From an uncultured Gammaproteobacteria bacterium (GTDB taxonomy: Bacteria; Pseudomonadota; Gammaproteobacteria; Pseudomonadales; Ketobacteraceae), in assembly GCA_913063495.1 (NCBI GenBank), contig CAJXXT010000016.1:2977-26976 (forward strand): a DNA stretch of 24,000 nucleotides, given 5' to 3'. The first letter of the stretch is position 1; the number at the start of each line of letters is the position of its first letter. Position numbers and translations under genes: made by a program. The notes below the pieces were generated by a model. The model saw only the letters and a program-made list of their open reading frames with translations. It made no database searches and was not told the DNA's origin. This document shows, piece by piece, positions 6,197 through 24,000 of this stretch.

Positions 6197-6211
6197 GCTG
6201 CTACAACCTAT

Positions 6212-6709: not shown

Positions 6710-6788
6710 GAAAATTCACCCTTAGGATTCAATCTTGTTAGATTTCAATTACTTTGCTTTAACACAGCGCCACACTTAACAAAATAAA

Positions 6789-6804: not shown

Positions 6805-6988
6805 CGGAACAAGCCTCGTTAACGTTCATAAAAATCCATATTTATCAATAAGTTACAATTGCAAAAAAATGAGGCCGTCAATGTTTTGGCCATACTTCAC
6901 AAGTGTAGTAGAGAATTTGGATATGAAAACGTCATTTTTATAACAGACGCTTGTTTTTACAGGATTTTTTGGCGGAAAGTTGGCATTA

Positions 6989-7020
6989 CACTGCGCTAGA
7001 AAGTACTTTATAGCGCAGTG
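6989..7020. repeat. 32-bp near-perfect palindrome / strong hairpin between fliK and fliL
   Basis: CACTGCGCTAGAAAGT|ACTTTATAGCGCAGTG pairs at 15 of 16 positions. It lies about 48 nt downstream of the fliK stop. No U-tract follows on either strand. Confidence 0.6.
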
Positions 7021-7067
7021 CTAAAACCAAGAAAACGTAAAAATTGAGGGCCGTATTACCACTAGGT

Positions 7068-9149
7068 TTAAGCGTAAAAATCTACCAGACTGTCTGTTTC
7101 AATGGTAGCAACTAGGCCGTCGCCCCCCACAGTATCATCATCACTGTCTTGACCCTTAGCGTTTGCCGCCAAACCACGTTCGTCTTCATTACCTTTATCA
7201 TGGCGGTCATGTGTTAGGTTTTCTTGAATATCAACATTATCAACATCAACACCGTTTTGCTCTAACATATCTCGTAACCGCTGGGCTCCTTGTTCCAATG
7301 CATCACGTGTTACCGAATGCTGACTTGCAAAAACGATACTCGCCTGTTGGTCTTGATTAAACTTAATCGATACATCAATCGAACCTAACTCTGCTGGGTT
7401 TAACTTAATCTCAGCTTCCTGAATTTTCTGACCAATCATCATCATAATGCGTTGATTAAACTCAGGAATAAAACCTGGCTTGTTCAACGGCGTCGCAATA
7501 GAGGTTGATAAGGGCTTTGCTTCTTCGGTTTTGATGGAGGACATTTGCTCTAACGCACGACCAAACGAACTGGGTTTCACACCCTCATCTACAGAAGCCT
7601 TTTTCACGTCCTGACCGGGAATACGTAACTGCCTTAGCCCTTCCATGCCTTGGCTCAGGCGCTTATCAAGCGCTAACAATTTATCTGCTTGTGGGGTCAT
7701 TACATCTTCAGCCCCCGCCTTAGACATGGCAGCACCCTCTAAGCGCCCACCTTCCAATCTCCCTCCTTCTAATAGCACCTTACGTTCCTGCATCATTTGC
7801 TTTAATTCATCCGATGACAAATCGGCTTGTTTCAAAAAGGTAGGTTCTGCCAAACGGTCTGAGCGGTTAACCGACTCAATTGCCTGACTAAGGGGAAGTA
7901 TTTTTGATCCAGGCAATGCCTTTTCTAAAGGGTTTTCTGCTGATCGCTTAGCATCAAGTAATCGAGCGACATCATCCATGCTCCGAAGGGCGCCTGCAGA
8001 CTCAGCCTTGGCGGCATTAAGTTCAGCCACTTTTACCGTTTCAGCTTGCCCCTCAGGTTTAATGATGGCATCCGATAACATGGCGGGATCATTTGCCTTA
8101 CTCAAAGCAACACCCTGCATATCTTCTGGTGAAGTGCTTGAAATCTCAGACTCCAGTACACTCGTGATTTTTGATTCCGAAATAGGTGTTGGTTCTTTAC
8201 CGGTATTGGTATCAACAGAGGCACTAGCTACACTACTTTCCATAACCTCTAGGTAATCACTATTGGCGGCAGCTTGATCGACACGTATATCAGCACTTAT
8301 ATCAGCACCATCATCAACACCCCCGTCAGCACCTAATGTTTGCTCCATCCATTGTGCCAATGTAGACATTGGGATAGTGGATTCTGATTCAGAATCCACT
8401 ATCCCTGTAACCTCATTAGCCGACGTTACATCAGCATCACTGAGCTGCTGAAGAATATAGGGAGACAACACTACCTCATCAACCGCCGGGGTTATCTCAC
8501 CTTTTGACCCTTGTTGTGCGTTATCAGCCTGCTCCTGTTGAAGCATTTGATCTTTAGACTGAGTACCTGACTGTTTAGCTTGCGCTAACTGTGATTCGGT
8601 TTGCTTAGACTGAGCCTGTTGCGTCTGCCTTATTTCTGCGTTTGCACCCTCACGCTGAGCACTATTTTGCTGTGAACGATCTTGCCGAGCACTATCTTGC
8701 TGAAAACTATCTTGCCGAGAGTTTTTCTGTGAAGCCAGGTCTTCGGCACGGTTATTCTCTCGATCTGCCTGCCTTACCCGGTCATTCCCATTATCTGGCA
8801 AACGCTTGCCGCTTTCCTGCTGTTGATTTCTACGATCAGCCTGGCTGATTCGCTCATCTCGCCTATTTTGCTCGGTTCGACGTGCATCATCTGCCTGTCT
8901 ATCTGCTCGTTGAGACGCTCTCTCATCCGCTCTAATATCCGCTTGGCGAGCGTCTTGCTGTCGGCTTTCTTGATTTTTTTGACGTGAACGCTGCTCATTT
9001 CGAGCATCCACTTGGCGCTGATATTCTTGATTAAAGGCCTGCCTTTCATCACCAACCGATTGATTTACAACAGAACTTCTACCTGCACCAAGATCAACAT
9101 CGGGGGCATTGGTACTGACAGAAATAGGCAAGGCAATATCAGCTGGCAT
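7068..9149 (-). CDS. fliK: Flagellar hook-length control protein FliK
   Basis: The C-terminus has a Flg_hook-type domain (IKLNPAELGSIDVSIKFNQDQQASIVFASQHSVTRDALEQGAQRLRDMLEQNG). The centre is long and Q/R/D/S-rich low complexity. ATG at 9149 with AGGAG (9158-9162) is preferred over the track's TTG at 9188. Confidence 0.85.
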   Translation of the reverse strand: MPADIALPISVSTNAPDVDLGAGRSSVVNQSVGDERQAFNQEYQRQVDARNEQRSRQKNQESRQQDARQADIRADERASQRADRQADDARRTEQNRRDERISQADRRNQQQESGKRLPDNGNDRVRQADRENNRAEDLASQKNSRQDSFQQDSARQDRSQQNSAQREGANAEIRQTQQAQSKQTESQLAQAKQSGTQSKDQMLQQEQADNAQQGSKGEITPAVDEVVLSPYILQQLSDADVTSANEVTGIVDSESESTIPMSTLAQWMEQTLGADGGVDDGADISADIRVDQAAANSDYLEVMESSVASASVDTNTGKEPTPISESKITSVLESEISSTSPEDMQGVALSKANDPAMLSDAIIKPEGQAETVKVAELNAAKAESAGALRSMDDVARLLDAKRSAENPLEKALPGSKILPLSQAIESVNRSDRLAEPTFLKQADLSSDELKQMMQERKVLLEGGRLEGGRLEGAAMSKAGAEDVMTPQADKLLALDKRLSQGMEGLRQLRIPGQDVKKASVDEGVKPSSFGRALEQMSSIKTEEAKPLSTSIATPLNKPGFIPEFNQRIMMMIGQKIQEAEIKLNPAELGSIDVSIKFNQDQQASIVFASQHSVTRDALEQGAQRLRDMLEQNGVDVDNVDIQENLTHDRHDKGNEDERGLAANAKGQDSDDDTVGGDGLVATIETDSLVDFYA
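7734..7772 (-). repeat. In-frame tandem repeat LEGGR-LEGGR-LEG inside fliK
   Basis: Read directly: tta gaa gga ggg aga / ttg gaa ggt ggg cgc / tta gag ggt. The copies differ in their codons. Confidence 0.8.
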
Positions 9150-9247
9150 CGTAGTAACTCCTGAACGCAATGGCAGATCACACGTCAATCACAGGAAAAC
9201 ACTGTGAGCATGGGATTCGTTATAGCAAATGCTATTAGCCATTATTC

Positions 9248-9263
9248 AGCAAAGACGATGCCA
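9248..9263 (-). promoter_or_regulatory. Sigma54 (-24/-12) promoter for fliK
   Basis: The minus strand reads TGGCATCGTCTTTGCT with exact GG-N10-GC spacing. It starts 22 nt after the stop of the upstream gene and about 100 nt before the fliK ATG. Confidence 0.6.
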
Positions 9264-9714: not shown

Positions 9715-10002
9715 ATGCCTCCAGCCGCCCGAATTGGCGATTTTCACATTTGCCCCCAATGGACAGGAATAGTGCCTCATGTGGGAGGGCCTATTGCTTT
9801 AGGGGAGCCTACGGTGTTGATTGCAGGTATGCCTGCGGCACGGATGGGTGATATGGCGATTTGTGTGGGGCCACCGGATAAAATTGCGAAAGGTAGTGCC
9901 ACGGTGAAGATTGGGAATAAGCCAGCCGCTAGGATGGGAGATACCACGGCTCATGGTGGGGTTGTGATTGTTGGAGCGCCTACGGTGATGATTGGGGGGT
10001 GA
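9715..10002 (+). CDS. PAAR-domain protein (stand-alone, 95 aa)
   Basis: Three PAAR motifs are present (PPAARIGD, MPAARMGD, KPAARMGD), with an ending TVMIGG typical of minimal PAAR spike-tip proteins. An AAGGAA RBS precedes the ATG. Confidence 0.9.
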   Translation: MPPAARIGDFHICPQWTGIVPHVGGPIALGEPTVLIAGMPAARMGDMAICVGPPDKIAKGSATVKIGNKPAARMGDTTAHGGVVIVGAPTVMIGG

Positions 10003-10291
10003 TAGTAATATTATTAGCCTCAATATGACGGCGCTTGTGGATCACGGTAATAATAGAAACTTGATCGCTGTATACATGATAAATAATCCGCCACGATTGC
10101 ACGCTTACTTCTCGTATTAGGTCATCATTAACTTCCGGCACCACCTTTCCTATTGCCGGTAACTCAGCTAATGGCCCTGCTTTATCTAATATTCTATTGA
10201 CCACTTCCTTGGCATTTATCGGCGAATCTTCGGCAATGTAATCATGTATGTCTTTTAAATCAGTACGGGCACGGGGTGTCCAAACTACCAT
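9980..10291 (-). CDS. parE: Type II toxin, RelE/ParE family (ParE-like)
   Basis: 103 aa. Pattern W.P.A..DL..I.dYIa.dSP..A...v..I......L...P.iG....e......RE.....yRIiY......v.IitViHkRR. The start overlaps the antitoxin stop (ATGGTAG), indicating translational coupling. Confidence 0.8.
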   Translation of the reverse strand: MVVWTPRARTDLKDIHDYIAEDSPINAKEVVNRILDKAGPLAELPAIGKVVPEVNDDLIREVSVQSWRIIYHVYSDQVSIITVIHKRRHIEANNITITPQSSP

Positions 10292-10762: not shown

Positions 10763-12112
10763 CTAAAACCCTGAATTGACCAGATGACGAGCTACCTGTT
10801 CATAGAAATCGGCTGAACCACCATTGTAGGGTGCGGCTTCACGATAACCAGGCCCCGATATTAACGTGTCATCATTGCGACCGGTCACATACATGTGATG
10901 ATAACCCCGACCAAACAGGCGCCCTTTTAGTGTAGCAACGTGAGACATGTTCGGATAACCCAGCAAATCCAGACGTTGTGATTTCACTGTGGTATAGCCA
11001 TCATTTGCACCTAAAGCCCCCCAAATTAAAAAGAAATTCGCAGCCTCCAGGTTACTCCACAAATTAAAATCCCAATTACGTATTTTTGTGGCCCAACTGA
11101 AATATTGAACACCATTATCGCGTTCATTTGATGCATTGACCAAGACATCCCACTTATTTTCATCCCCGACAAAATCAATAAGTTCTGACCAACTTTGTTG
11201 AAAGCTCATATTATCAAAGGGGTAACCCAGCATGTACTTTCGTGAAAGATTCGTCAGGGAGTGTACATAATGACGATACATACCCAGCTCATCGAGATTA
11301 CTTTCTCCAAAGTCCGGCGTTTCCATCAAATCATAAGTATCCCCTTGTTTCCACAACCCTGCTTGCACTTCTTGCTTCAGTGAACCCCAGGCCAGATCGT
11401 TGCCATAATCTGCCCATCCATTACCCGCTACCACATTGCTAAGATAAATAACGTCCAGCAATAACGATGCACCTACAGTTCCACGATTTTCTCCAACGAG
11501 TCCAACAAATGCAGCCACTTTATCGCGCATTAAACCTTGGCTTGGATCATCGTCAGAAACAGGTAAACGAGCAATCATATAACGACCGTCCTGGGAGCCT
11601 TGTGACATACCAAAAATATTCACCTTGCTTGCCCCAGTTTCTTCCAGTGCCTGCAGAACAGTATTTCGCAATGAACGAGCTCGAGCAGCATTACTTGCGT
11701 AGGGTGGTTTATCGGCAATATAAACTGGAACACCACAATGTTCCTCTAGCCGAGTAACAATCTCCGCACTGAAATAGCGGTGATAGGCGTTTAGGTTTCG
11801 GGTTAATTCGCTATTGTGAACATTGTAGTTTCTTGGGGGAAGGTCACGCTCCTCCACAGGTACTTCCCAGCGAGTGCAGCTCTGCCCCCCTGTTCCATCA
11901 CCCACCCATTCCGCACACAAGTGGCTTGATTCTCTTTTCTCACAATCCTTTCCGTCCACATTATCAGGGCATATTTTTCGCATACTCCAATGATGCGAAA
12001 GCACAACAGGGTATTTTGTTTTACAGCTTAGGTCTTCGACAGCAAAAGCTGCATTCATTGTTGTTAAGGTAGTGAGCAGGCCTAACAGGAGCACAAGTGG
12101 TTTCGATCGCAT
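10763..12112 (-). CDS. Secreted lipase-like alpha/beta hydrolase (Sec signal peptide; family-I-lipase-like motifs)
   Basis: 449 aa. Signal peptide MRSKPLVLLLGLLTTLTTMNAAFA. Oxyanion-region-like YPVVLSHHW. Nucleophile elbow G-M-S-Q-G at 11597-11611. NDGYTTVKS resembles the Asp-bearing NDGLVS motif of true lipases, with downstream His residues (GYHHMYV). Six Cys sit in the N-terminal third. AAGGA RBS. Confidence 0.7.
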   Translation of the reverse strand: MRSKPLVLLLGLLTTLTTMNAAFAVEDLSCKTKYPVVLSHHWSMRKICPDNVDGKDCEKRESSHLCAEWVGDGTGGQSCTRWEVPVEERDLPPRNYNVHNSELTRNLNAYHRYFSAEIVTRLEEHCGVPVYIADKPPYASNAARARSLRNTVLQALEETGASKVNIFGMSQGSQDGRYMIARLPVSDDDPSQGLMRDKVAAFVGLVGENRGTVGASLLLDVIYLSNVVAGNGWADYGNDLAWGSLKQEVQAGLWKQGDTYDLMETPDFGESNLDELGMYRHYVHSLTNLSRKYMLGYPFDNMSFQQSWSELIDFVGDENKWDVLVNASNERDNGVQYFSWATKIRNWDFNLWSNLEAANFFLIWGALGANDGYTTVKSQRLDLLGYPNMSHVATLKGRLFGRGYHHMYVTGRNDDTLISGPGYREAAPYNGGSADFYEQVARHLVNSGF

Positions 12113-12535: not shown

Positions 12536-14557
12536 ATGATGAAATTTAAAACGGGAATAATACTCGCAAGCTCAATCTTGCTTACCGCATGTGGTGGTGG
12601 CGGAGGCGGAGGAGGTGGATCAACAACAGCACAACTTAACAATAACGAGACCCCTACTACTCCAGAAACACCTTCAGCCAGAATTCAAGTGTCAGCTCAA
12701 AATGGGGAGATGTCCTTACAGTGGCCTGAAACCGAAGTGAACGGGAACACCGCTGAATGCTACAGAGTATCGGTAAGAGGAAACGAAAACGAAAACTACC
12801 AAGAAGTAGAAAGTTGCCTAGAAAACGCGTCATTTACGACCAAACTTAGCGTGATACACACCGATATAGCCGGAATAAGTTATTTGATAGAAGCTTGCGA
12901 CAACACCGGTGCCTGTGAAGAGATTGACAATGTTACGCTGGAAAATGAAAAAGAAAATTTGGTAGAGAAAATCCCCCTCCCATCAGTACCAGGGCTTGAA
13001 GAGTTTGGCTACCGTACCTACCTGTACACCCCTAACGGGTCATACGTTAGAGCATCATTTGAGGCTGATCAACTTAACCATATTCTATCAGAGGATGAAT
13101 CTACGCTAGTTTACCTTTTAAACCATGATTCCTCAACTGGAACAGGTGTGTATGCAGACCCCACACAAGGCAGGAGCATAGATAACGCTACAGATCAAGC
13201 TCTAGCCAAATCGGGTGCAATCCTTGTAACTAAAAAACAAGGTAACGAATGGGTTTTTGACACCTTCATTAAACCACCTACCCTTGAAAACTCTCCATTT
13301 GTGAGGCGCGTATATCACGCTGGCAAGAACTGGAGTAACCTTATAGATAGCTTTCCAGACGGTTTAAAACTTAGCACAGATGGCAACTCCATCGCGGTTA
13401 CACTGCCTGAGTGCGGCGAAATAGAAGTACCCCGCCCCCAAGTATCTTTCGAATGCATACTATCCATTGTGACTTATAAAAGGAAAGATGGGGTCTGGGA
13501 GCTAACAGAAAAAATCAGAATAGCAGATTCAAGAGATGATGCTTATCTCACAGGAAGCCCCTTCCTTTATGCGGAGGAAACTATTGTTATGAGCGGTGAT
13601 GGAAAGACCATACTATTTGATCAGAAAAGGCCTGAACTTAGACCGTACTTTACCGGTATTGTAAATTACCCCTACCCAGACCAATTTAATGGGCACCTTA
13701 TAGAATCAAGTTATTCTGAAAACTACACACCAATCGTTTCGCGAAGATCAGTGGCCGAAGTACTTAACTTTGACGACCCCATCAATGGCTGGACCATTCA
13801 GGCAAGCATAAGACCAGCTCACGATGGGCTTCACCCATCTTACAGAAAGCTTAGCTACGATGGCAGCCTAATAATAGGTTTGGATCGCGGAATCCAACCC
13901 GACACTTTTCATACATTTAAACGAAACAACAACGTCTATCCTCCAATTTGGGAGAAAATTGATTCACCCCCATTCAATTACGTAGGCATAGGTATAGGTT
14001 CCCTTGTAACCAATATTTCGGGTTCAAGCGTGATGTATAACATCAATGGTGATGGAACAATTCAACACCCGATTTTTAAAATAATCGATGGTGTCTACAC
14101 TCCCGACGGAGAGCTTCCCCAACTAACGATCAATAACAAACCTTTTGCATATCCAGGAGAAATTTCGCCAAGCCTTCTCCCAGGCAATGAAAGTGACTAT
14201 GAGATGATAATAAATTCAACTGGTGACGAAATACTTGTCCTAGCAGGAGAAGGTTTTAACACTGGCTCAGAAGTGGAAATACAGATAAGCCGAGAATATA
14301 AAGGGTATGTGAAAATGGACGAGCTAATGTTTAACAACATACACCACATTGAAGATGCCTTTGATAACTCAATTGAAGGTGGGAACAGCACCGGCTATTA
14401 TTTACATTTCAAAAAAGAGAATGCTGAATGGGGGCTTATTGGCCTGATCGCACTTCCAGATCGTAATCCTAACTGGTACACTCATCGGCTTGGCGCTGGA
14501 ATGCCAGTTCAATTTTTAGAGGATGGAATCCTTGTAACTGGAAACATCTATAGATAA
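12536..14557 (+). CDS. Large lipoprotein with poly-Gly tether, FN3-like N-domain and degenerate FG-GAP-like beta-propeller repeats
   Basis: 673 aa. Lipobox LLTAC is followed by G9S. Recurrent blade-like motifs are LSEDESTLVYL, LSTDGNSIAVT, MSGDGKTILFD, LSYDGSLIIGL and NSTGDEILVLAGEG. Each is followed by a g.W....i segment (GNEWVFDTFIKP, DGVWELTEKIRI, NGWTIQASIRP, NAEWGLIGLIALP). Confidence 0.6.
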   Translation: MMKFKTGIILASSILLTACGGGGGGGGGSTTAQLNNNETPTTPETPSARIQVSAQNGEMSLQWPETEVNGNTAECYRVSVRGNENENYQEVESCLENASFTTKLSVIHTDIAGISYLIEACDNTGACEEIDNVTLENEKENLVEKIPLPSVPGLEEFGYRTYLYTPNGSYVRASFEADQLNHILSEDESTLVYLLNHDSSTGTGVYADPTQGRSIDNATDQALAKSGAILVTKKQGNEWVFDTFIKPPTLENSPFVRRVYHAGKNWSNLIDSFPDGLKLSTDGNSIAVTLPECGEIEVPRPQVSFECILSIVTYKRKDGVWELTEKIRIADSRDDAYLTGSPFLYAEETIVMSGDGKTILFDQKRPELRPYFTGIVNYPYPDQFNGHLIESSYSENYTPIVSRRSVAEVLNFDDPINGWTIQASIRPAHDGLHPSYRKLSYDGSLIIGLDRGIQPDTFHTFKRNNNVYPPIWEKIDSPPFNYVGIGIGSLVTNISGSSVMYNINGDGTIQHPIFKIIDGVYTPDGELPQLTINNKPFAYPGEISPSLLPGNESDYEMIINSTGDEILVLAGEGFNTGSEVEIQISREYKGYVKMDELMFNNIHHIEDAFDNSIEGGNSTGYYLHFKKENAEWGLIGLIALPDRNPNWYTHRLGAGMPVQFLEDGILVTGNIYR

Positions 14558-14745: not shown

Positions 14746-14771
14746 ACAAAAGGGTCTCCAATTGAAGACCC
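14746..14771 (-). terminator. Rho-independent terminator at the end of the pilus-like operon
   Basis: The minus strand reads GGGTCTTCAATTGGAGACCC followed by TTTTGTG. It lies 37 nt after the stop at 14808. Confidence 0.6.
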
Positions 14772-14807
14772 TAATTATGAAGCATTGAACCGTACTTAAT
14801 TAGGTGC

Positions 14808-15803
14808 TCATTCCTCCGGAAGCTTACAATACAACGCCATCGTAAGGGTTGCATCATGACCACCACAGGAAGTTAGGTCTTCTCTCTTTATATTATCTGC
14901 ACCATCATTCTTTTTACAATCCCAAGTAATCGCACCAGTCTCTTCATTTTCTTTAGAAGTGCATTTTTTATGTATTGATTGTAACCGGAACGTCCAAGCA
15001 ACATCAGTTCCTTCATCCGTATCTTCACGTACATCAAACCCTACAACTTCCTTCCACGTCTTACCGTTATCTTTTAACTTTGCTTTTTTAGCAGCACAGG
15101 TCAACGATGAAGTAATCGCATAACCAGCCTCTTTCCCTTCCTCGCATACTGGCTTGAGTATTGTTGTTTTATATTGCCCGCCTTCAACTTCAACATCAAC
15201 TTCATCAGCACAATACCAATACCAGCCCCACCAAGACCATTTCCATTTTGCACACTCTTTATCAGTATCTTCCGCATAATTAAACATAGGTACTATTGTG
15301 AATGCTCGATTTCCATAGGTGTCAACAAAAGAACGTACAGTCGCCCAATCACCGTTTGTAGAAAGCAACGAGCCTCTGTCCAATGAATCTACAATAAAAG
15401 GCACCCACTTTTTTGGAACATCCTGGGTAACCGCGTATACACCGCCACTGTCCTCACAAGAAAAAAACAGCTCTTTTCCCCAACCATTCACCAAGTCATC
15501 TGATGCTGTCATATACACACCATCAAAACCTATAATTTCTTTACCTGCCCCCCCTCCTTCAGCATTAGATGTAGCATTTGCAGATACACAGCCATCATCA
15601 TAAGGCCAGCCCCCACTAACCCGAGAAAACTCGTAAGCAGCATTAATCACATCATAGGTTCTTGCAATCGATAACGCTGCGGCACGCTGGTCACTGAATA
15701 TTTTACTCGGTGCAAACAACACCGCTGACAACATACTGAGAGACGTCACAACAACCAAAAGCTGAATCAATGTGAATCCACGACTAAACCGCTCTACATT
15801 CAT
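14808..15803 (-). CDS. Large minor prepilin-like protein lacking Glu5 (GspK-like position and size), Cys- and Trp-rich
   Basis: 331 aa. Prepilin signal MNVERFSRG|FTLIQLLVVVTSL has Gln, not Glu, at mature position 5. It has 10 Cys, the motif KWKWSWWGWYWYC (15210-15248) and a C-terminal ...ALYCKLPEE. It is the last gene of the operon. Confidence 0.75.
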   Translation of the reverse strand: MNVERFSRGFTLIQLLVVVTSLSMLSAVLFAPSKIFSDQRAAALSIARTYDVINAAYEFSRVSGGWPYDDGCVSANATSNAEGGGAGKEIIGFDGVYMTASDDLVNGWGKELFFSCEDSGGVYAVTQDVPKKWVPFIVDSLDRGSLLSTNGDWATVRSFVDTYGNRAFTIVPMFNYAEDTDKECAKWKWSWWGWYWYCADEVDVEVEGGQYKTTILKPVCEEGKEAGYAITSSLTCAAKKAKLKDNGKTWKEVVGFDVREDTDEGTDVAWTFRLQSIHKKCTSKENEETGAITWDCKKNDGADNIKREDLTSCGGHDATLTMALYCKLPEE

Positions 15804-15810
15804 CAGTTAA

Positions 15811-16611
15811 TCACTCACAGTACACAATATAGTCAAAACGAAGTTCATTACATCCATTCCCACTAGAAAACTCATCAGGAGCATCAGCATAACTAACTTC
15901 TAACTTAGCATTCCAATGCTCCACATCATCAATTTCTGTGTCTGTCACGTTAACCCTGTATCCACCAAGGTGCTTGGGATTAAATATACCCTCCGCGCCC
16001 TCTGGGTCAGATTTAACACACACACTTTTTATCATTGTGCTTAGCCTTGGTCGACGACATGCGGGTTTTTCAATATCGGAGTCTAAGATTCCATCGACAG
16101 AACCTGATTCAATTAACTGAGCCACCCTTGGTTTCGGAATATATAATTTAACCTTACTGTCAGATATTGATGCTGAAGGTAATAATGAAGCCACCCATCG
16201 GGCCCGCTCTTTTTCTTTATCAGTAGCAATCGCCCCACTCTTAAAATCATATTCAATGATTAAAACAGGCGTTCGCCCCCTTAATTGCAGGCAAGAAAAC
16301 ACATATTTATCTTCATTTCTAATTTCAGCAAAGTACCCACCAGCCTTTAAAACAGTAAACCCATCTGAACAGGATGTTGTACCATCCACGACCTCTTCTT
16401 CCCCTGGCCAAACGCCATCAATATTCTGTACATAAGCTCTAGTGGAATTGCTTAACGTCATAAATTCAGAAACATGAAAATCCACCAATTTTTCTTCTGT
16501 ATGAGCTAGAAACATTTGAGAAAAAAACACAACGGAAGCAACAAGCAGCGCTGAAACCACCATCATTTCTACTAAGGTAAAACCACGAGACCTATTTGAA
16601 TACATATTCAT
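15811..16611 (-). CDS. Minor prepilin-like protein (about 266 aa) with Cys-rich C-terminal module
   Basis: Prepilin signal MNMYSNRSRG|FTLVEMMVVSALLV. ATG at 16611 is preferred to the TTG at 16623. It has 6 Cys and ends YIVYCE. Its N-terminal globular part is paralogous to that of the 331-aa protein (GxWP...C...F(S)C...(R/K)WV). Confidence 0.75.
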   Translation of the reverse strand: MNMYSNRSRGFTLVEMMVVSALLVASVVFFSQMFLAHTEEKLVDFHVSEFMTLSNSTRAYVQNIDGVWPGEEEVVDGTTSCSDGFTVLKAGGYFAEIRNEDKYVFSCLQLRGRTPVLIIEYDFKSGAIATDKEKERARWVASLLPSASISDSKVKLYIPKPRVAQLIESGSVDGILDSDIEKPACRRPRLSTMIKSVCVKSDPEGAEGIFNPKHLGGYRVNVTDTEIDDVEHWNAKLEVSYADAPDEFSSGNGCNELRFDYIVYCE

Positions 16612-16626
16612 AAAGACTACCAAATA

Positions 16627-17112
16627 TTAAAATTGCTGCTTAGCAGCCATAGAGGGGAATAAACTATACTGAGAAGAGATCGCATATTTTTTACGCGGAT
16701 AAAAAGTCAATACTGACTGTAAATTGTCGTCTGTACCAACAGTGCTACTACTCGCGCCTAAAAAACGCCACTGGCCTTCTGGGGTACTTAACATCAACGT
16801 TAACTGAGAGACGCTACTTCCTGTTACACCCTCAATATAATTACAGCTAACACCCGTATTTTTACACAGAATCTGGATATCATTTTTTGTAAATTCGTCC
16901 GTCAAAGAGTATTCGCGATTAAAATCCAAGGCATTAACGATATTTTGCGCCTCCTCACTGTATGCAGTAAGCTCTAAAATCCTAGCTTGTTCCCGAATAT
17001 CACCATAAAAGATGACGGAGAGTGTAACCATAAGAGATATAACAATTAACAGCTCTACTAGCGTAAATCCCTTATATTTCGAATGAGTTTTCGTAATAAC
17101 TGGCCTATACAT
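16627..17112 (-). CDS. Minor prepilin-like protein (161 aa)
   Basis: Prepilin signal MYRPVITKTHSKYKG|FTLVELLIVISLMV with Glu5. A closely spaced Cys pair is present (ILCKNTGVSCNY). Confidence 0.75.
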   Translation of the reverse strand: MYRPVITKTHSKYKGFTLVELLIVISLMVTLSVIFYGDIREQARILELTAYSEEAQNIVNALDFNREYSLTDEFTKNDIQILCKNTGVSCNYIEGVTGSSVSQLTLMLSTPEGQWRFLGASSSTVGTDDNLQSVLTFYPRKKYAISSQYSLFPSMAAKQQF

Positions 17113-17126
17113 TACAATCAGCCCTA

Positions 17127-18293
17127 TTAATTAAATCCACCGCCAGAAGCGGCACCTGCAAGCGGCAAATAGAACCCCAATACAGCAGCTAACACAGATG
17201 CCAGCATTAAAATAAACCCTACTCGGGACAATGCTTTTGATACCCTGCGGGAAGCATGAATATTTTGTAATTGCATTGTTGACTCCATTGCCTCAAGAAT
17301 ACGCGCCTGCTCCGAATCATCTACCTCAGATATAACAGACATCCCATCTCGAATGGTCGGATCCCAGTCCTCTTCATCTAGTGCATCCGCCAAACCTTCC
17401 GAAGAGGCCAATCTCGCATAAATACGTCCGTATATATCCCTATTCTCCCCTTTAGAGGACGACAATAGCTCATAGATTATCTCTGTATCCACAAAACCCG
17501 ACTGTCTCAACATTCTATATATCGATAAAAACTGAGTTCCTCTATCAAGCAACCTCTTTTGATGGAAAAGCGAAAAAAAAGGTAGCCCTTTAACCAGTCG
17601 CCACAAAATTTTCCTATAAAAGACTAAGAATGGGAGCAGAATAAATGGGGCATAACCATAATTTCTCAACAAATCACCAAGACCAACTAATGCTAACGTA
17701 AAATTATTTGGTTTTAAGTGCATTGCTCCATCCATCATGCTTTGAATGGTTTCACCAATAAACAAGGGCACTAAAATAAAGAATGCAAGACCTAGTACGA
17801 TATACGTAATGCCTAACCTTAACTCTGCACTAACATCCGTACTGATTTTTTCTCTATTTAGTAAGTATTTTGATGCTTCTCGTAAGGCCTCAGAATAACG
17901 ACCATTTTTCTCCGCAGCTCTAGCCATAAGAATAGAAAACTTATCAAAATGAAAAGCTCTTAAATAGTCTGACAAACTTTCACAATTATCTAATTTTTCT
18001 TGCTTTGGCTTTAACCACTGACTGCTTTTTAGCAAAGTAGATATACCTTGATGTACAGTGCGCCCAGAAGCGAGCGCACTGCTTAACGTCTGCATAAACA
18101 CAGCTTGATTCTTTGCATCTGGCGCTGAAGACTCTAATACTGTTGCCAAACGGCCCACAATATCTTCCCGAACAGCGGTAATACGCCGTTCAGGAATTTT
18201 CGAATTCCAACGCGCTTCTTCTTTATTGCTTGCCTCTACTTTTAAAGAAGCAAGCTCACCGCGAGAATCAAGATAGTTTACGACGTAAATCAT
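17127..18293 (-). CDS. Type IV filament platform protein (GspF/PilC family)
   Basis: 388 aa. Two repeats of a cytoplasmic helical domain are each followed by TM segments (TYIVLGLAFFILVPLFIG; APFILLPFLVF; GFILMLASVLAAVLGFYLPL). It sits adjacent to the pilin and ATPase genes. Confidence 0.8.
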   Translation of the reverse strand: MIYVVNYLDSRGELASLKVEASNKEEARWNSKIPERRITAVREDIVGRLATVLESSAPDAKNQAVFMQTLSSALASGRTVHQGISTLLKSSQWLKPKQEKLDNCESLSDYLRAFHFDKFSILMARAAEKNGRYSEALREASKYLLNREKISTDVSAELRLGITYIVLGLAFFILVPLFIGETIQSMMDGAMHLKPNNFTLALVGLGDLLRNYGYAPFILLPFLVFYRKILWRLVKGLPFFSLFHQKRLLDRGTQFLSIYRMLRQSGFVDTEIIYELLSSSKGENRDIYGRIYARLASSEGLADALDEEDWDPTIRDGMSVISEVDDSEQARILEAMESTMQLQNIHASRRVSKALSRVGFILMLASVLAAVLGFYLPLAGAASGGGFN

Positions 18294-18307
18294 TCAGATA
18301 TACCTGA

Positions 18308-18847
18308 TTATGAACAGTGGTAAGTGACGATAACCACATCACTCGCAGAATTATAGTCTGTGACTGTATCAATTTGAGGTTTGCCTGTTACATTTTTAAT
18401 GATATCTCGTGCTGCCTGAGTGGGATTATCCGACCCTGTAGTGGGTATTGATACTGTTAACAATCGAGTTGTATCAGTATACGTTACTGACCAATAATCA
18501 TCCCAAGGCGTTTTCTGATATAACCCTCTCTCTACCAAGTTTTTCTTTGCGGCTGTTGCTACTGGATTTTCTGTTCCCGCTCCCGCTGCCGCAGGGTAAG
18601 TCGCACCTGAGGCTGTGTATTCAGTGGCGTCGTCGATAAGCGCGCATGAACCAAAATTCCTGGCTTTATACGAACTAGCCGCCTTAGGAATGCTACCCAA
18701 AATAAACGCTGTCGTCATAGCGACTTTGGCGTCATCATTCGACTGTCCTAATTCTACAGTAATATACACAACCAATAGCGCCACAAGTGATACTACAGTG
18801 ATCAATTCAACCAGTGTAAAACCAGCCTGTCTCTTTTGTATTTTCAT
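18308..18847 (-). CDS. Major prepilin (type IV pilin-like, 179 aa)
   Basis: Short leader MKIQKRQAG|FTLVELITVVSLVALLVVY with G-1, F+1 and E+5. Two Cys (FGSCAL and the C-terminal YHCS) suggest a large disulfide-bounded region. A 91-nt spacer lies upstream, with a GGGTG RBS. Confidence 0.85.
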   Translation of the reverse strand: MKIQKRQAGFTLVELITVVSLVALLVVYITVELGQSNDDAKVAMTTAFILGSIPKAASSYKARNFGSCALIDDATEYTASGATYPAAAGAGTENPVATAAKKNLVERGLYQKTPWDDYWSVTYTDTTRLLTVSIPTTGSDNPTQAARDIIKNVTGKPQIDTVTDYNSASDVVIVTYHCS

Positions 18848-18938
18848 ATTTCACCCTTATATTTTAAATTAAAATTCATTCCTAAAAAAAGACACCAATA
18901 GCGCAAGAAAAATGCACATTTTATATGTATTTTTCCCA

Positions 18939-20723
18939 CTAACCTTCAGCCAACAATACTTCATTATCAGAAAATGTAGCCTCGTCATTATTAGAGGCCA
19001 GACAACCCACCTTCTTTAATGAATTCAACGCCCTGCGACTGACATCTAGTGGGTTAATTTTCATCTCTAGACCTTCCAATGTGGTAACACCTTTTTTTGC
19101 AAGGCGAATGCCATCATCCCAAAGATCTAAAAAGTCACCTTCTACTTGCTGTGACAGCTTAATATGCACAGCGCCAACACCTTGAGTTATTAGCTTTTCA
19201 GTCTTCTCATCATTAACAAAAACTTCATTTACAATATGCCTCCCTAGGTAGCCATAACTGCAAAGCTCACAACCTTCAACCCTTGCGACATAGGGAACCT
19301 TTACCGTAGCTGGCATTAACGTTTCTACCGATTGGTATTTATCCCAAAGGGAGTCACGCTTTGAAATATGAACACTGGATGAGCAGTGGGGACACACTCT
19401 ATTCACTAAACGCTGGGCCGTAACGGCTAATAGATTTTCCGCTAACAACGCATCATCCACACCAAGGTTTCGCAACCGATTGATAGCGCCGTGCGCATCA
19501 TTAGTATGCAATGTTGTAAGCACCAAATGCCCTGTCATTGAAGCCCTCAGTGCCAATTCTGCAGTTTCAGCATCTCTTATCTCGCCAATCATGATAACGT
19601 CAGGGTCATGACGTAGCAGCGATTTTAACGCCATTGCAAACCCCATATGCTTAGACACTTCCAAAGCCGTTATTCCATCAAGTTGATCTTCAACGGGATC
19701 TTCAATCGTATAAATAGCTTTCTCTGGAAACTGATCTCGTATATCGCGAAGCACTGACTTTAAGGTTGTAGATTTCCCACTCCCGGTTGGCCCAGTAACA
19801 ATAATCATTCCACTAGAACGCCGCCCCACACCGCGCAATATATCAACATGGGATTTCGATAAACCCAGCTGATCTAAACGGCCAACACCCCGCATATTAT
19901 TGAGTATTCGAACGGTAAATTTTGGTTTCACTTGCGTAAACACTTTTACCGGAGCCATCTCCAGTCGCATGCTTACTTGTTTATGTGCAGCCTGGAATAC
20001 CAAATAACCACTACAAGGTTCCAAATAATTATTTTGTTTGCTCACCCGCTCCATAAGATTATTTGCAACAAGCTTAAATTGCTCATTTGTGATCGTTTGC
20101 AGCCCTGGAATATTAGAGACTTGGCAGCGGCCATCAATACGTAACCGTATCACACCACCGTGTGATTCTGGGTTTATATGAATATCACTGGATTTTCTAT
20201 TAATTGCCTCATTTAGTAGATCATCTACAAATTCTTTTGCCCAAGCACCACTGGTTTCTTTACTATTAAAAGCAACATCGTAGTTTGCCTGTACTACAAT
20301 ATCTGATTCAAAATCAGACATTGCCAAAATCCCCAATTTAGAGAATTGAATTTTATCTCTGCTGTCTTTTTTTCGCCGAATTAATGGCTCGATCTGGCTT
20401 CGGTCATAAGGATTCGTTACATACAAAACATCATCGGCAATTAGCCAAGGGCATTTATCATGCGTACTTCGAACCAACGTGTCGCGATTAACAATACTTC
20501 CAGAAAAAATATCACTCTTGTATATATCCGCCAATACTGCTGCAAGCTTTTCGTCATCAACCCCTTGTTCCCACAACCGAGGAACAATCTCCTCCGCTGA
20601 GGCAGGCAAAGCCATACTATGGGAAATTTTTTCCGAAATAACCCCATGCTCCACCAATTTCTCTTGGATTTTTTCAAACTGAATAGCTAGGCGATTTTTT
20701 GTATTTTCGGTAATTTTTGACAC
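18939..20723 (-). CDS. Type IV filament assembly ATPase (GspE/PilB/MshE family)
   Basis: 594 aa. Walker A GPTGSGKST at 19767-19793. Asp/Walker B region DPDVIMIGEIRD. His box TGHLVLTTLHTND. Tetracysteine CPHC...CELC Zn motif. The N-terminal region is T2SSE_N-like (KLVEHGVISEKISHSMAL...LWEQGVDDEKLAAVLADIY). GTG start. Confidence 0.9.
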   Translation of the reverse strand: MSKITENTKNRLAIQFEKIQEKLVEHGVISEKISHSMALPASAEEIVPRLWEQGVDDEKLAAVLADIYKSDIFSGSIVNRDTLVRSTHDKCPWLIADDVLYVTNPYDRSQIEPLIRRKKDSRDKIQFSKLGILAMSDFESDIVVQANYDVAFNSKETSGAWAKEFVDDLLNEAINRKSSDIHINPESHGGVIRLRIDGRCQVSNIPGLQTITNEQFKLVANNLMERVSKQNNYLEPCSGYLVFQAAHKQVSMRLEMAPVKVFTQVKPKFTVRILNNMRGVGRLDQLGLSKSHVDILRGVGRRSSGMIIVTGPTGSGKSTTLKSVLRDIRDQFPEKAIYTIEDPVEDQLDGITALEVSKHMGFAMALKSLLRHDPDVIMIGEIRDAETAELALRASMTGHLVLTTLHTNDAHGAINRLRNLGVDDALLAENLLAVTAQRLVNRVCPHCSSSVHISKRDSLWDKYQSVETLMPATVKVPYVARVEGCELCSYGYLGRHIVNEVFVNDEKTEKLITQGVGAVHIKLSQQVEGDFLDLWDDGIRLAKKGVTTLEGLEMKINPLDVSRRALNSLKKVGCLASNNDEATFSDNEVLLAEG

Positions 20724-20768
20724 TGAGTAACCTATTTCTATTGGAGGTAAACCTTAAAACGACCCAAT

Positions 20769-21281
20769 TTAATCCCAACTGAACCCGACTTGATAAATCA
20801 CACCTTCTTTCTCTAGTTTAGCGCCATTCACGGTACTTACTGCCAGCACTCTATACCCTCCAGGAAGATAACCACCCTCTTTCGCCTCAACATTCCCTGA
20901 TGCCGTTTTAAATGACGCTTGATTACCGTTAATTCTTTTCAAAATAGGAAGTGTTATTTTTGCGCCTTCTGCCGCGCTATTCCTATTACTTACCACAGGA
21001 GAACTTGCTTCGGTTGGCTTTTCATTATTTCCGACATTAAATCCCATAGAATCCATATCACCAGGAACAAAGCCTCCAGACTCCTTGAATGCTTGATAAG
21101 ATTTCGCAATCTTCGCACGCTGCTCTATCAATTTGGCTTGATACTGCAAATCTTGTAATTCTCGCGCTCTTGCTGCCTCTCGCTTCAATACAGAAGCGCC
21201 ATCTTCAGGCCCAGCTACTACAACAGTGTTCATTCCCAAGCACCCAATAATGAGTGCTCCCAACATAGTTGATTTTTTCAT
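20769..21281 (-). CDS. Periplasmic or lipoprotein accessory protein, PilP / GspC-HR-like (tentative)
   Basis: 170 aa. Signal peptide with a possible lipobox (ALIIGC). A coiled segment (QDLQYQAKLIEQRAKIAKSY) is followed by a C-terminal beta-rich region NGNQASFKTASGNVEAKEGGYLPGGYRVLAVSTVNGAKLEKEGVIYQVGF. The function is inferred from topology and operon position. Confidence 0.45.
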   Translation of the reverse strand: MKKSTMLGALIIGCLGMNTVVVAGPEDGASVLKREAARARELQDLQYQAKLIEQRAKIAKSYQAFKESGGFVPGDMDSMGFNVGNNEKPTEASSPVVSNRNSAAEGAKITLPILKRINGNQASFKTASGNVEAKEGGYLPGGYRVLAVSTVNGAKLEKEGVIYQVGFSWD

Positions 21282-21324
21282 TATGATTCCTACTTTCCGC
21301 CGATGATTAGACTTTATCTATTAT

Positions 21325-21795
21325 TTATTCACTACCTAATACAGAAAATCGTATCGTGGCATTCTTTTCTCGTAAGTTGATACCATACAGAAATGCAGGT
21401 ACCGCACTTTGTATTTCTTTAGCAGATACCAACACTGCACCTACACTTCCCTTTAGGTCAGCCGTCCAGGACGCTAACGGCCCGTTATAACTATCTTTTG
21501 AGTTTTTATTGGAAACGAGAGAAACATCAACGCCATATTGATCTGCTATCGCCGTCACATAACGCCATTGGTTTTTGACCGGAGGTAACACCTCCATTTG
21601 GGCCAATCTCTCTGCCTGAGTGTTATATACTTTAATGTCCTCCTCAATAATCTCTACATCTGCAAACGCGGCTTTGTTAACCCGTACGACCTGGCGCTTA
21701 TATATCTGGTGAGAAGTAAGGAATATAACAAGAAACATGACAGCCCAATGAGACCAATCCCATTGAGAAAGAAACCCTGGAAGATTAACTTTCAT
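21325..21795 (-). CDS. Bitopic inner-membrane accessory protein, PilO/GspM-like (tentative)
   Basis: 156 aa. Short cytoplasmic N-terminus, one TM (WAVMFLVIFLTS), a coiled coil, then a small periplasmic alpha/beta-like domain. Overlaps the upstream gene by 11 nt. AGGAAAA RBS. Confidence 0.5.
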   Translation of the reverse strand: MKVNLPGFLSQWDWSHWAVMFLVIFLTSHQIYKRQVVRVNKAAFADVEIIEEDIKVYNTQAERLAQMEVLPPVKNQWRYVTAIADQYGVDVSLVSNKNSKDSYNGPLASWTADLKGSVGAVLVSAKEIQSAVPAFLYGINLREKNATIRFSVLGSE

Positions 21796-22669
21796 TATTT
21801 TTTTTCCTAATACTTAATATCCATTCACCTTTTGGGTCATACTCAGAGGTCACCCAAGAATAATTTTGAGCAGGGTTAACTCCCACATCAGGAACAACAA
21901 AGACTAACTTCTCCCTCTGTAAACTTTGTCCAGGCAATGTCGCTAACTTTGGATTAACCGCCCACACTGCGGCAATGCTCTCGATCATCCGTGCATCATT
22001 CGGAACATCTGTTAGGCGCGTTGTTTTTAATTTATCCAAACCTGATTGAATAACCTGCAATAACTCAGCCTTACTTTCTGCTTGTTCTGTCTCCAGCGCA
22101 TATATTTTGGTTAAACCAACATCTGTCACAAGCCCTAAAACCACACACAAGGTCACTACTGAAATCAAACTACTCCAGGTCTTCCTCACAACTTCCTTAC
22201 GTTGAGTCAATAATTCTGCCGCCAACTTAGCTTCAGTATCCGGCAATACAAGTTGATCAATCTCTGGGTTCAGTTCTGCTGCCTCGTCAAGGTTAAAACT
22301 TGCGTCCGCAGCGAAGAATCCAGCTTCGTAATCCCCTGAAAACTCAGCCCTCCCCAAATCACAATGTATATAGTAGCCATCTTGAGGGGTTATTTTTACT
22401 ACCTGCAACGCCTTTCGATATGACACTAATCCACTATTAATTAATGTATGCCACATTCCGAATACACGAGTATCTGGATAAGACTCTCGAATATCTTCTA
22501 TATCAGTCTCTCGAATATGAATTGCAGGACAGTTATTCGTAGCCGGTGCTAGTTCTACATATTGATGTTGCTCACTTAGCGGAACCGGCCCAACAATATC
22601 AGGAATAAAAACAATATCTTCGCCTAAAATACGAACTGGCCGACGCAGGTATTCCGAAAAATCTGACAC
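21785..22669 (-). CDS. Bitopic inner-membrane accessory protein, GspL/BfpC/PilM-N-like (tentative)
   Basis: 294 aa. A cytoplasmic domain of about 165 aa, one TM (WSSLISVVTLCVVLGLVTDVGL), a coiled coil, then a periplasmic domain of about 90 aa. The GTG start lies 1 nt after the secretin stop. Confidence 0.5.
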   Translation of the reverse strand: MSDFSEYLRRPVRILGEDIVFIPDIVGPVPLSEQHQYVELAPATNNCPAIHIRETDIEDIRESYPDTRVFGMWHTLINSGLVSYRKALQVVKITPQDGYYIHCDLGRAEFSGDYEAGFFAADASFNLDEAAELNPEIDQLVLPDTEAKLAAELLTQRKEVVRKTWSSLISVVTLCVVLGLVTDVGLTKIYALETEQAESKAELLQVIQSGLDKLKTTRLTDVPNDARMIESIAAVWAVNPKLATLPGQSLQREKLVFVVPDVGVNPAQNYSWVTSEYDPKGEWILSIRKKNNES

Positions 22670-22670
22670 G

Positions 22671-24000
22671 TTACGCCCCTTCCAATATTGTGGGCGTCAC
22701 TGTTAACACTAACTCTCTTCGTTCAACACCTTGAGTTTCATTGCCGAAAATAGGCTTGAGTATTGCACCTGTTAGCTTTTCCCTCCAAGGTAATTCCTCC
22801 AATTTTTTCGCTATCGCCCTTCGGATAAACCCACCTAGTTGAATGGGTTTTCCTGACTCTGCAATCACCTGGGTAGAGAGTTCCTGCAGTGCAATTCGCG
22901 GAACAACTTGCGCTTCACCTTCAATTTCAAACACATCACTGCCATCCATAGAACTCACTACAGGCCATATATCCAAAAGAATTCTACCATCGGATAATAT
23001 TCGTGGTGTTACCGAAAGCGTAACTCCAACTCGCACAGACTCTAATGTTTTCTCAACGCGACGATTAACCACCCCTTCAGGCGTTACTCCATCAGCACCG
23101 GTAACTTCTATTTTCCCAATATAAGTCGACTCTTCACCACTTGATATATAGGCATATCCTCCATTTCTAACAGTAACATTCGGCTGATTCAGTAATTCAA
23201 CCTCACCAAATTTACTCAAAAAGTTAAGGATAAAGCCTGCATTTACTTTACTCGAAGAATATGATCCAGCGCCCTGAAACAAAGTATTCGTTGAATCAAA
23301 AATACCATTCTTAACGGTTTGAAATCCAAAATTCAGAGGGTTCCCATTAAACGACCCATTTACCGATGCTAACTGATCCCAATCAATACCTGCTCCACGA
23401 TCATCATTAAGTGTTACGTCATAGGCCTTAACTGAAATATTAATTTGTTTTGATCCCGACTCTGCTATAGATGAAATAAATTCATCAACAGCCTTCATTC
23501 GCTGCGGAGCCCCTCCTGCACTGATAGTTCCCACCGATCGTACAGCTTGTATATATGGAGATACTCTTGTTGCAGATGTCACTTCCGAGCCTCCGTCTTG
23601 AACATTTAGTATACGCTTTGCACCGTCAACAATGGCTAGCCACTCATCATCATTAAATACCGTAGATATCTCATTAGTCGTAGAAGCTCCACCACCAGAC
23701 TTAGATGAACGCAGCGGTCTACCTACGGTAAGGCGTACATCTCGTTTGGAGGAAAACATAGCCAAATTCCATTGCTTATCGACAAAAGAACGTATTTCTA
23801 CTTTTCCATTATTTAGACTTATTTCATAACCACTTAGCGATGACAAGTATTCGAGGTAATCTTTTACGTACATGTCCTTAGCAATCATATTGAGCGTCTT
23901 TGACAAATCAATATTCGAATCTTTTGGTATAATACTGTTATTGGGTAATTTCAATCTCAATGCATCGACTAATGAGACGGATCCAACAAAACTCACCTTT
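22671..24000 (-). CDS. Secretin (GspD/PilQ/T4b-secretin family), N-terminus beyond the window end
   Basis: The C-terminal secretin core is present (LNQPNVTVRNGGYAYISSGEE...VGVTLSVTPRILSDGRILLDIWPVVS...RELVLTVTPTILEG). An N0-like segment lies near the window edge (SLVDALRLKL...YLEYLSSLSGYEISLNNGKVEIRS). The track's GTG at 23996 is probably not the true start, since no signal peptide is visible. Confidence 0.85.
   Translation of the reverse strand, partial: KVSFVGSVSLVDALRLKLPNNSIIPKDSNIDLSKTLNMIAKDMYVKDYLEYLSSLSGYEISLNNGKVEIRSFVDKQWNLAMFSSKRDVRLTVGRPLRSSKSGGGASTTNEISTVFNDDEWLAIVDGAKRILNVQDGGSEVTSATRVSPYIQAVRSVGTISAGGAPQRMKAVDEFISSIAESGSKQINISVKAYDVTLNDDRGAGIDWDQLASVNGSFNGNPLNFGFQTVKNGIFDSTNTLFQGAGSYSSSKVNAGFILNFLSKFGEVELLNQPNVTVRNGGYAYISSGEESTYIGKIEVTGADGVTPEGVVNRRVEKTLESVRVGVTLSVTPRILSDGRILLDIWPVVSSMDGSDVFEIEGEAQVVPRIALQELSTQVIAESGKPIQLGGFIRRAIAKKLEELPWREKLTGAILKPIFGNETQGVERRELVLTVTPTILEGA

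Follow-up and report, generated by a model that had tools for sequence, protein, structure and literature searches.

On megaplasmids of Pseudomonas, namely pQBR57 (genes pQBR57_0074-0083), pQBR103 and the IncP-2/pBT2436-like plasmids, a ten-gene region carries the annotation of a putative type IV pilus (Hall et al.; Cazares et al.), and a pQBR paper of 2026 states that the role of this type IV pilus region "is yet to be determined experimentally" (PMC13391042). In addition, 884 type IV filament systems remained unassigned, as "generic", in the work of Denise et al. (2019), and such generic systems sometimes occupy the basal position that is otherwise held by the type IVb pili (T4bP) (PMC6668835). 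Here we analyzed a stretch of 24,000 nucleotides (referred to as the window) from an uncultured member of the Ketobacteraceae (assembly GCA_913063495.1, contig CAJXXT010000016.1, positions 2,977 to 26,976), which carries a compact ten-gene operon for a type IV filament machine. The lineage to which this operon belongs has been noticed before on the Pseudomonas megaplasmids, and it has never been classified or studied functionally. The operon probably encodes a complete-looking assembly machine of a distinct and conserved lineage, and its product is most likely a pilus exposed at the cell surface that serves in adhesion or contact between cells, rather than a pseudopilus in the periplasm. The link to the pQBR plasmids rests on the statements of the papers that the pQBR and IncP-2 backbones share the type IV pilus region.

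An earlier note on this DNA had described ten tightly packed or overlapping genes, and this description holds. The ten open reading frames (ORFs) lie consecutively on the minus strand from position 14808 to past 24000 and point in the same direction, with a spacing that ranges from an 11-nt overlap to a 91-nt gap, and they form a genuine compact type IV filament operon. In the direction of transcription, the first gene encodes the secretin (22671-24000, visible ORF 22671-23996+; PF00263, 1.9e-25) and is truncated at its 5' side by the end of the window. It is followed by the genes of a 294-aa bitopic inner-membrane protein (21785-22669), apparently a lineage-specific assembly protein without Pfam or NCBIfam match, a 156-aa protein with an N-terminal transmembrane helix and a periplasmic domain (21325-21795; no family match), a 170-aa secreted PilP-like protein (20769-21281; TIGR03021) and a 594-aa extension ATPase of the GspE/PilB superfamily (18939-20723; T2SSE, 1.7e-83). 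Then come the 179-aa major prepilin (18308-18847; N_methyl, 9.2e-6), the 388-aa platform protein of the inner membrane (17127-18293; T2SSF, 2.3e-13) and three minor prepilins, the first of 161 aa (16627-17112; N_methyl, 3e-6), the second of 270 aa with a TTG start (15811-16623; N_methyl, 6.6e-6) and the last a large terminal one of 331 aa (14808-15803), which is identified by the prepilin signal in its sequence and is a candidate tip subunit. Pfam and NCBIfam thus recognized the secretin, the T2SSE ATPase, the T2SSF platform, the PilP-family protein and three of the four prepilins. The parts and their order are as first described, except that the window ends within the secretin gene: alignment with relatives indicates that the N-terminus of the protein is short of about 65 residues including the lipoprotein signal (441 aa visible versus 494-524 aa in relatives). 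The secretins of the relatives are lipoproteins with an LxGC lipobox.

The predicted terminator at the operon end was also confirmed. An intrinsic-terminator-like hairpin followed by UUUU lies at 14747-14772 on the minus strand, 3' of the pilus operon and between it and the convergent gene at 12536-14557; it has a 9-bp stem (14772-14751) with a 4-nt loop and a minimum free energy of -21.9 kcal/mol (z = -5.05), and none of 200 shuffles folds equally well. A simple terminator scanner passed over this hairpin because the T-run is short. At the other end, the gene 5' of the secretin has homologues throughout the marine clade and on the plasmids, and therefore the system probably continues past the window; the ten-gene machine is real as an operon, while its set of genes in the window is probably incomplete. 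This eleventh gene lies directly 5' of the secretin gene and encodes a secreted protein of 165-212 aa in relatives, megaplasmids included, in which a signal peptide and a coiled coil are combined with a conserved C-terminus. Genes located 5' of the secretin were found at 5215-6593 in locus L002, 4824-6373 in L003, 2922-4292 in L016 and 10223-11110 in L020. In the marine clade, this side also holds two further genes, one for a lipoprotein of 240-320 aa and one, transcribed divergently, of about 450-600 aa. A SPOR-like C-terminus of the upstream lipoprotein was suspected by eye and given up, as Pfam returned no match.

The earlier note had raised the conservation of the gene order in related genomes, and it is clearly conserved. 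The same ten-gene order occurs in about 15 marine Ketobacteraceae/Pseudomonadales genomes (15 or more loci), and it is shown by all contigs that encode ATPases of this family as well as by those found with a platform profile. The ATPase family comprises about 63 database clusters of at least 44% identity, from Ketobacter, Ketobacteraceae and marine Pseudomonadales assemblies, below which identity falls abruptly to 31-39%. Moreover, the order is kept at 26-36% identity in contigs of Pseudomonas oleovorans and Pseudomonas sp. HS-2, and likewise on Pseudomonas plasmids. There it was seen in more than 130 records, most of which are megaplasmids of P. aeruginosa with a size of about 320-640 kb; plasmids of Halopseudomonas and Methylophaga gave further matches. 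No near-identical DNA was found on plasmids. Two distant loci recovered with the profile of the 294-aa protein retain the core order, and one of them lies in a setting like that of a plasmid or an integrative and conjugative element (ICE), with SSB, ArdC and CsrA. Distant members also bear an extra PilT-family ATPase gene at the cassette end (L026, 14440-15909; L028, 16194-17183), in one case fused to PilZ, and this fusion suggests that retraction may be controlled by cyclic di-GMP in some variants. As the marine copies on chromosomes show, the cassette is no plasmid oddity but an ancient and autonomous unit.

The megaplasmid cassette is the closest described system. The sole plasmid record that we examined in detail, NZ_CP029096.1 (typed MPF_I), has at 77123-86348 the order secretin, 311 aa, 158 aa, 219 aa, ATPase, two pilins, platform and two minor pilins. 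BLAST of the window proteins against this record gave 285 bits for the secretin, 84 bits for the 294-aa protein (with the 311-aa protein), 50 bits for the 156-aa protein (with the 158-aa protein, 3e-11), 300 bits for the ATPase and 169 bits for the platform. The two cassettes share the gene order, i.e., secretin, proteins of about 300, 157 and 200 aa, ATPase, pilin or pilins, platform and minor pilins, as well as the gene directly 5' of the secretin. They differ in that identity is 23-36% and that the plasmid copies have two tandem major and two minor pilins, whereas the window copy has one and three. In addition, an HD-domain gene and radical-SAM/SPASM genes accompany the plasmid copies, whereas the window copy is chromosomal and stands beside flagellar genes. 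In the plasmid copies, several radical-SAM/SPASM genes lie directly 3' of the cassette and the HD-domain gene lies divergently 5' of it (L020, that is NZ_CP029096.1, 20463-30001; L005, 16219-18476). This linkage is not seen next to the window operon, whose downstream side consists of the hairpin and the convergent lipoprotein gene; its upstream side is beyond the window.

We then compared the machine with the described classes, using one reference for each: the pil cluster of an IncI1 plasmid (for R64), the Etp type II secretion system (T2SS) of pO157, Bfp of enteropathogenic Escherichia coli (EPEC), HofB/HofC of E. coli and the msh locus of Aeromonas caviae, which encodes the mannose-sensitive hemagglutinin (MSHA) pilus. 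The last was taken from L025 (NZ_AP026896.1, "plasmid pKAM479_3", 4.94 Mb), a chromosome-sized PLSDB record that is mislabelled as a plasmid and almost unannotated, and that contains a complete msh locus. Among the curated NCBIfam equivalogs for GspE, PilB, GspD, PilQ, MshL, PilN, GspF, PilC and the pseudopilins, no cut-off was reached. The ATPase scored 301 bits with GspE (cut-off 630) and 270 bits with PilB (cut-off 676), and the platform 26 bits with GspF (cut-off 424). For the secretin, the scores were 72.6 bits with GspD (cut-off 351; the true T2SS secretin EtpD scores 543), 54.7 bits with PilQ (cut-off 284), 43 bits with the T4b family PilN, TIGR02520 (cut-off 288; R64 PilN 483, BfpB 226), and 152 bits with MshL (cut-off 250), which was its best model. 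The lead of an "MshL-like secretin" was dropped after calibration: Aeromonas MshL scores 279 bits on this model, and the match is uninformative because secretins other than MshL score 96-126 bits on it too (EtpD 126, BfpB 99, R64 PilN 96).

The ATPase has its Walker A motif at residue 311 and CPHC...CELC at residues 444 and 485; the tetracysteine motif was considered as a class marker and discarded, as R64 PilQ has a tetracysteine too. Its N-terminus is divergent and weakly MshEN/T2SSE_N-like (hhalign to MshEN with 73% probability, E = 3e-5). In BLAST against the class references, it matched EtpE with 212 bits, MshE with 183 and HofB with 182, which puts it at a similar distance from all three, and it is more remote from BfpD with 138 and PilQ with 120; among PDB chains it matched PilF, EpsE and PilB with about 200 bits and BfpD with 120. 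The platform is highly divergent from GspF/PilC: its T2SSF match is limited to the first repeat, and BLAST against GspF (EtpF), HofC, MshG, BfpE and PilR gave no match, in contrast to the 169 bits with the megaplasmid platform. The secretin is 68-70% identical to the secretins of L001 and L006 and 35% identical to that of the IncP-2 megaplasmid.

Neighbor-joining trees with 300 bootstraps, read as split supports, placed the window and megaplasmid copies in one clade for all three of these proteins. In the ATPase tree, the marine and Pseudomonas family was recovered at 87%, the GspE/HofB/MshE/PilB group without the family at 96%, and the T4b pair of PilQ and BfpD without the family at 98%; the family joined T4b in 17% of bootstraps and joined MshE or EtpE in 0%. 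In the secretin tree, the family had 100% support and joined MshL in 11%, and a split of the family plus T4b against MshL plus EtpD was found at 85%. In the platform tree, the family and the classic HofC/EtpF/MshG group were supported at 100% and 99%, respectively. The lineage thus appears separate from the textbook classes, within the limits of neighbor-joining and single references. Its ATPase and platform seem to lean to the side of type IVa pili (T4aP), T2SS and MSHA, and its secretin and PilP-like protein to the T4b side. As for T4aP itself, no Pfam match to PilM, PilN or PilO was found and the cut-offs of PilB and PilQ were missed; the leaders are of the T4aP type (short, Gly at -1, Phe at +1, with Glu at +5 in three of the four prepilins), and none is of the T4bP type, which is long and has a residue other than Phe at +1. 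The proposal of an uncharacterized lineage therefore stands in that, as far as tested, ATPase and secretin nest in no studied class; it has to be amended in that the same gene order is already annotated on Pseudomonas megaplasmids.

Of the three proteins encoded between the secretin and the ATPase, the 170-aa one was rightly called PilP-like: with 37.5 bits it just passes the cut-off of 34.65 of TIGR03021 (pilP_fam, R64-type PilP), and it consists of a signal peptide, a coiled coil, a linker and a C-terminal PilP/HR-type beta domain that aligns with R64 PilP. The equivalent proteins of the distant loci score 36 bits (L026) and 25.7 bits (L028), and the megaplasmid homologue does not reach the cut-off. 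The labels "GspL/BfpC-like" and "PilO/GspM-like", which the other two proteins had been given, hold for topology only. For the 294-aa protein, hhalign of the family against BfpC, R64 PilO, GspL (EtpL, 0.7% probability) and MshI was negative in all four cases. Its AlphaFold2 model, which is confident (predicted local distance difference test score, pLDDT, 83.4), has an N-terminal alpha/beta domain, a long helix with the transmembrane segment and a small C-terminal alpha/beta domain, and Foldseek found nothing in the PDB below E = 0.4. A profile search with this protein among 1.84 billion representatives yielded 151 clusters at 50% identity. The 156-aa protein keeps a constant position in all loci and has a PilO/GspM-like topology, with no homology detected in Pfam or NCBIfam. 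By sequence comparison, the 294-aa and 156-aa proteins are without detectable homologue in any reference system.

A more far-reaching proposal, which we regard as possible rather than probable, gives the cassette a class of its own among type IV filament machines, as a sister lineage between T4b and T4a/T2SS/MSHA. In such a class, the inner-membrane alignment proteins would share no sequence relationship with PilMNO, GspLM, BfpCU or PilO, and the secretin would have a periplasmic partner of its own, encoded upstream. The class would be common to marine hydrocarbon-associated Gammaproteobacteria and the clinically important IncP-2/pQBR megaplasmids. On the plasmids, it may be the conserved and long-unexplained backbone trait for host adhesion or recipient capture.

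All four prepilins bear the short G-1/F+1 signals that had been predicted, with leaders of about 8-14 aa (9 aa in the major and 14 aa in the 161-aa minor prepilin). The signals are QAG/FTLVE, YKG/FTLVE and SRG/FTLVE, all with Glu5, and SRG/FTLIQ with Gln5 in the 331-aa prepilin (slashes mark the cleavage site). The N_methyl/GFxxxE motif was recognized in three of the four, and the 331-aa prepilin was identified by eye. The absence of Glu5 from the terminal prepilin of about 330 aa is correct for the window, but it is not conserved: position 5 of the last minor pilin is Q, H or F in three loci and E in three others. This prepilin has 10 Cys, and its matches in NCBIfam are weak N-terminal ones to the GspG and PpdD models and no others; it shares 24% identity over 157 aa with the 339-aa minor pilin of the megaplasmid (40 bits, E 1.8e-6). 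The 270-aa minor prepilin has 6 Cys and would be 264-266 aa long from an internal ATG. In the major pilin, Cys68 is invariant in an alignment of 19 sequences, and the penultimate Cys178 occurs in every homologue that reaches the C-terminus, so the pilin-type C-terminal Cys noted for this subunit is conserved. In its AlphaFold2 model (pLDDT 85.5), the major pilin has a predicted pilin fold, with a long alpha-1 helix and a four-stranded sheet, and a Foldseek search with this model returned no close solved pilin.

The filament subunits and the machinery differ greatly in conservation. When the window is compared with L001, L006 and L007, its closest relatives, the machinery is 56-83% identical, with 83% for the ATPase, 80-82% for the platform, 73-76% for the 294-aa protein and 68-70% for the secretin, whereas the major pilin is merely 30-37% identical and the minor pilins are 26-35% identical or undetectable. 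The major pilin gene lies between the strongly conserved ATPase and platform genes and yet falls in this low range, and the three minor pilin genes behave alike. Judged from these identities, the filament subunits, and they alone, seem to be subject to allele replacement or diversifying selection. A one-mismatch sigma-54-like site was also seen at 19098-19113 (minus strand), within the 3' part of the ATPase gene and 251 nt 5' of the major pilin start. It was rejected: the same place is not kept in 15 related loci, and the matches in the whole window, 15 versus 12 expected, do not exceed chance.

We favor a surface pilus as the product because the pilins diverge far faster than the machinery and because distant relatives add a PilT-like ATPase. 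Divergence of pilins amid conserved machinery is the pattern expected of exposed subunits, which argues for a pilus over a pseudopilus. The conserved disulfide pair (predicted) and the predicted pilin fold of the major pilin also support a pilus, as do the lipoprotein secretins of the relatives, which resemble those of T4b and MSHA. Furthermore, no homologues of GspC, GspL or GspM were found with Pfam, NCBIfam or hhalign, and no candidate substrate gene is conserved beside the cassette in the flanks of the relatives. On this comparative evidence, a pilus on the cell surface is the probable outcome of the assembly, and the original choice of a pilus, a secretion device or both is narrowed towards a pilus. 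Several points weigh on the other side. The window contains no PilT-type ATPase gene and no prepilin peptidase gene, as had been noted, and no A24 peptidase was found in the 10-kb flanks of the relatives either. The ATPase scores slightly higher with GspE than with PilB (301 versus 270 bits) and with EtpE than with HofB (212 versus 182 bits), and the order ATPase, pilin, platform, minor pilins, together with a last minor pilin without Glu5, also fits a T2SS-like tip complex. Foldseek gave no informative neighbor for the models of the 294-aa protein and the major pilin, and the trees have a single reference per class and few outgroups. Finally, we found in the literature no functional study of any member of the lineage, and the function of the plasmid copies is given there as undetermined.

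For a surface pilus, the following assembly path can be proposed from homology and topology. A housekeeping PilD-type peptidase encoded elsewhere would cleave the four short-leader G/FTL(V/I)E prepilins, and a hexameric GspE/PilB-type ATPase would drive the divergent platform, so that pilins are extracted from the inner membrane. The three minor pilins would prime assembly, with the Cys-rich 331-aa subunit without Glu5 at the tip, and the disulfide-stapled 179-aa major pilin would polymerize below them. The 294-aa and 156-aa bitopic proteins and the PilP-like 170-aa protein may couple the inner-membrane motor to the self-piloting lipoprotein secretin, where the fiber would exit. From the comparative data, the fiber would then be exposed at the surface. 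A retraction ATPase is not encoded in the window, and therefore any retraction would be spontaneous or depend on a PilT encoded elsewhere.

An alternative is that the cassette is a divergent member of type IVb, of the kind of the R64 thin pilus, PAPI-1 or Bfp, which came from conjugative elements with a role in mating-pair stabilization and was captured by the chromosome here. It shares with R64/IncI1 PilL-V and EPEC Bfp a compact operon with the order secretin, accessory proteins, PilP-family protein, ATPase and platform, which parallels pilN-O-P-Q-R of the IncI1 plasmid and bfpB-C-U-D-E. The PilP-family model above its cut-off, the lipoprotein secretins of the relatives, the 85% split that joins the secretin with those of T4b and not with MshL/EtpD, and the plasmid association of homologues (Pseudomonas megaplasmids, with NZ_CP029096.1 as MPF_I, and the distant plasmid/ICE-like locus with SSB and ArdC) all point the same way. 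However, the ATPase lies outside the PilQ+BfpD split, and neither it nor the platform belongs to the T4b clade; the PilN-family secretin score is far from its cut-off; and the leaders are short with Phe+1, unlike those of T4b prepilins. The 294-aa protein is without similarity to PilO or BfpC, and the accessory proteins as a set are unrelated in sequence to PilO and BfpC/BfpU. The cassette also lacks an in-cluster peptidase, a lytic transglycosylase, the PilV adhesin/shufflon and equivalents of PilL and PilM, and the window copy is in a chromosomal context beside flagellar genes. Descent from within type IVb is hence unlikely in our judgment.

Equally doubtful is a dedicated secretion device of the T2SS kind, in which the 179-aa subunit would form a short periplasmic pseudopilus with a GspI-J-K-like trio as its cap, and this pseudopilus would push one or more exoproteins through the secretin. 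GspE is the best model for the ATPase, which is also nearest to GspE among the class references (EtpE in BLAST), although the megaplasmid ATPase scores higher. The order E-(G)-F-minor pilins resembles gspEFGHIJK, the subunits have short G/F...E leaders, and the minor set ends in a large subunit that lacks Glu5, like GspK. Moreover, the PilP/HR-type connector domain is the core of GspC as well, the window has no retraction ATPase, and genes for a lipase-like protein and a large lipoprotein follow just 3' of the operon. Against these stand the GspE, GspD, GspF and GspG-K models, all far under their cut-offs, the absence of any bootstrap that joins the ATPase with EtpE, and the lack of GspC, GspL and GspM homology. 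The major subunit of the cassette is longer, disulfide-bonded (predicted) and hypervariable among close relatives, as are the other filament subunits, unlike pseudopilins; the neighboring genes vary between relatives, so that no conserved substrate is apparent; and PilT-like ATPases occur in relatives.

Lastly, an MSHA-type locus (Aeromonas/Vibrio msh) with a rearranged gene order, suggested by MshL as the nearest model for the secretin C-domain and the best class-reference secretin in BLAST (Aeromonas, 74 bits), by lipoprotein secretins and short-leader pilins, and by a locus that encodes neither peptidase nor retraction ATPase, is largely refuted and very improbable, as the MshL model attracts secretins in general, none of the three proteins ATPase, secretin and platform groups with its Msh counterpart (MshE, MshL and MshG, respectively), the platform has no BLAST similarity to MshG, and BLAST against the Aeromonas Msh proteins found no homologues of MshI, MshJ, MshK, MshM, MshN or MshF.

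The rest of the window is chromosomal and contains fliK-L-M-N-O-P-Q-R-flhB, a PAAR gene, a ParE toxin gene, a lipase-like gene and the gene of a 673-aa lipoprotein. The flagellar export/switch cluster occupies 952-9188 on the minus strand, and one-mismatch sigma-54 -24/-12 sites (TGGCAT-N5-TTGCA/T) are located at 6789-6804 and 9248-9263 (both minus strand), just 5' of fliL and fliK. Between fliK and the pilus operon are the PAAR-motif gene (9715-10002, plus strand) and the ParE toxin gene (9980-10291, minus strand). The 449-aa protein at 10763-12112 (minus strand) has a weak class-2 lipase match, and the 673-aa predicted lipoprotein at 12536-14557 (plus strand) has a run of nine Gly after the lipobox Cys and no family match; both genes also belong to the interval between fliK and the operon, and neither is conserved in relatives. 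In L001 and L002, PAAR (then DUF4404) is found beside fliK and the pilus cassette follows on its far side, and in L003 the cassette follows flhB. Linkage of the cassette to the flagellar locus is therefore a recurrent feature, and the cargo between the two varies.

As a whole, the machine described here belongs to the conserved backbone of the IncP-2/pBT2436-like and pQBR megaplasmids. These plasmids spread multidrug resistance in Pseudomonas, and papers up to 2026 give the role of the megaplasmid pilus region as unknown. The marine chromosomal copies offer a second, non-clinical setting in which it can be studied. If the lineage is indeed distinct, it would add a class to the type IV filament tree near the split between T4b and T4a/T2SS/MSHA, and it would reveal new, sequence-unrelated ways to couple an inner-membrane motor to a secretin.

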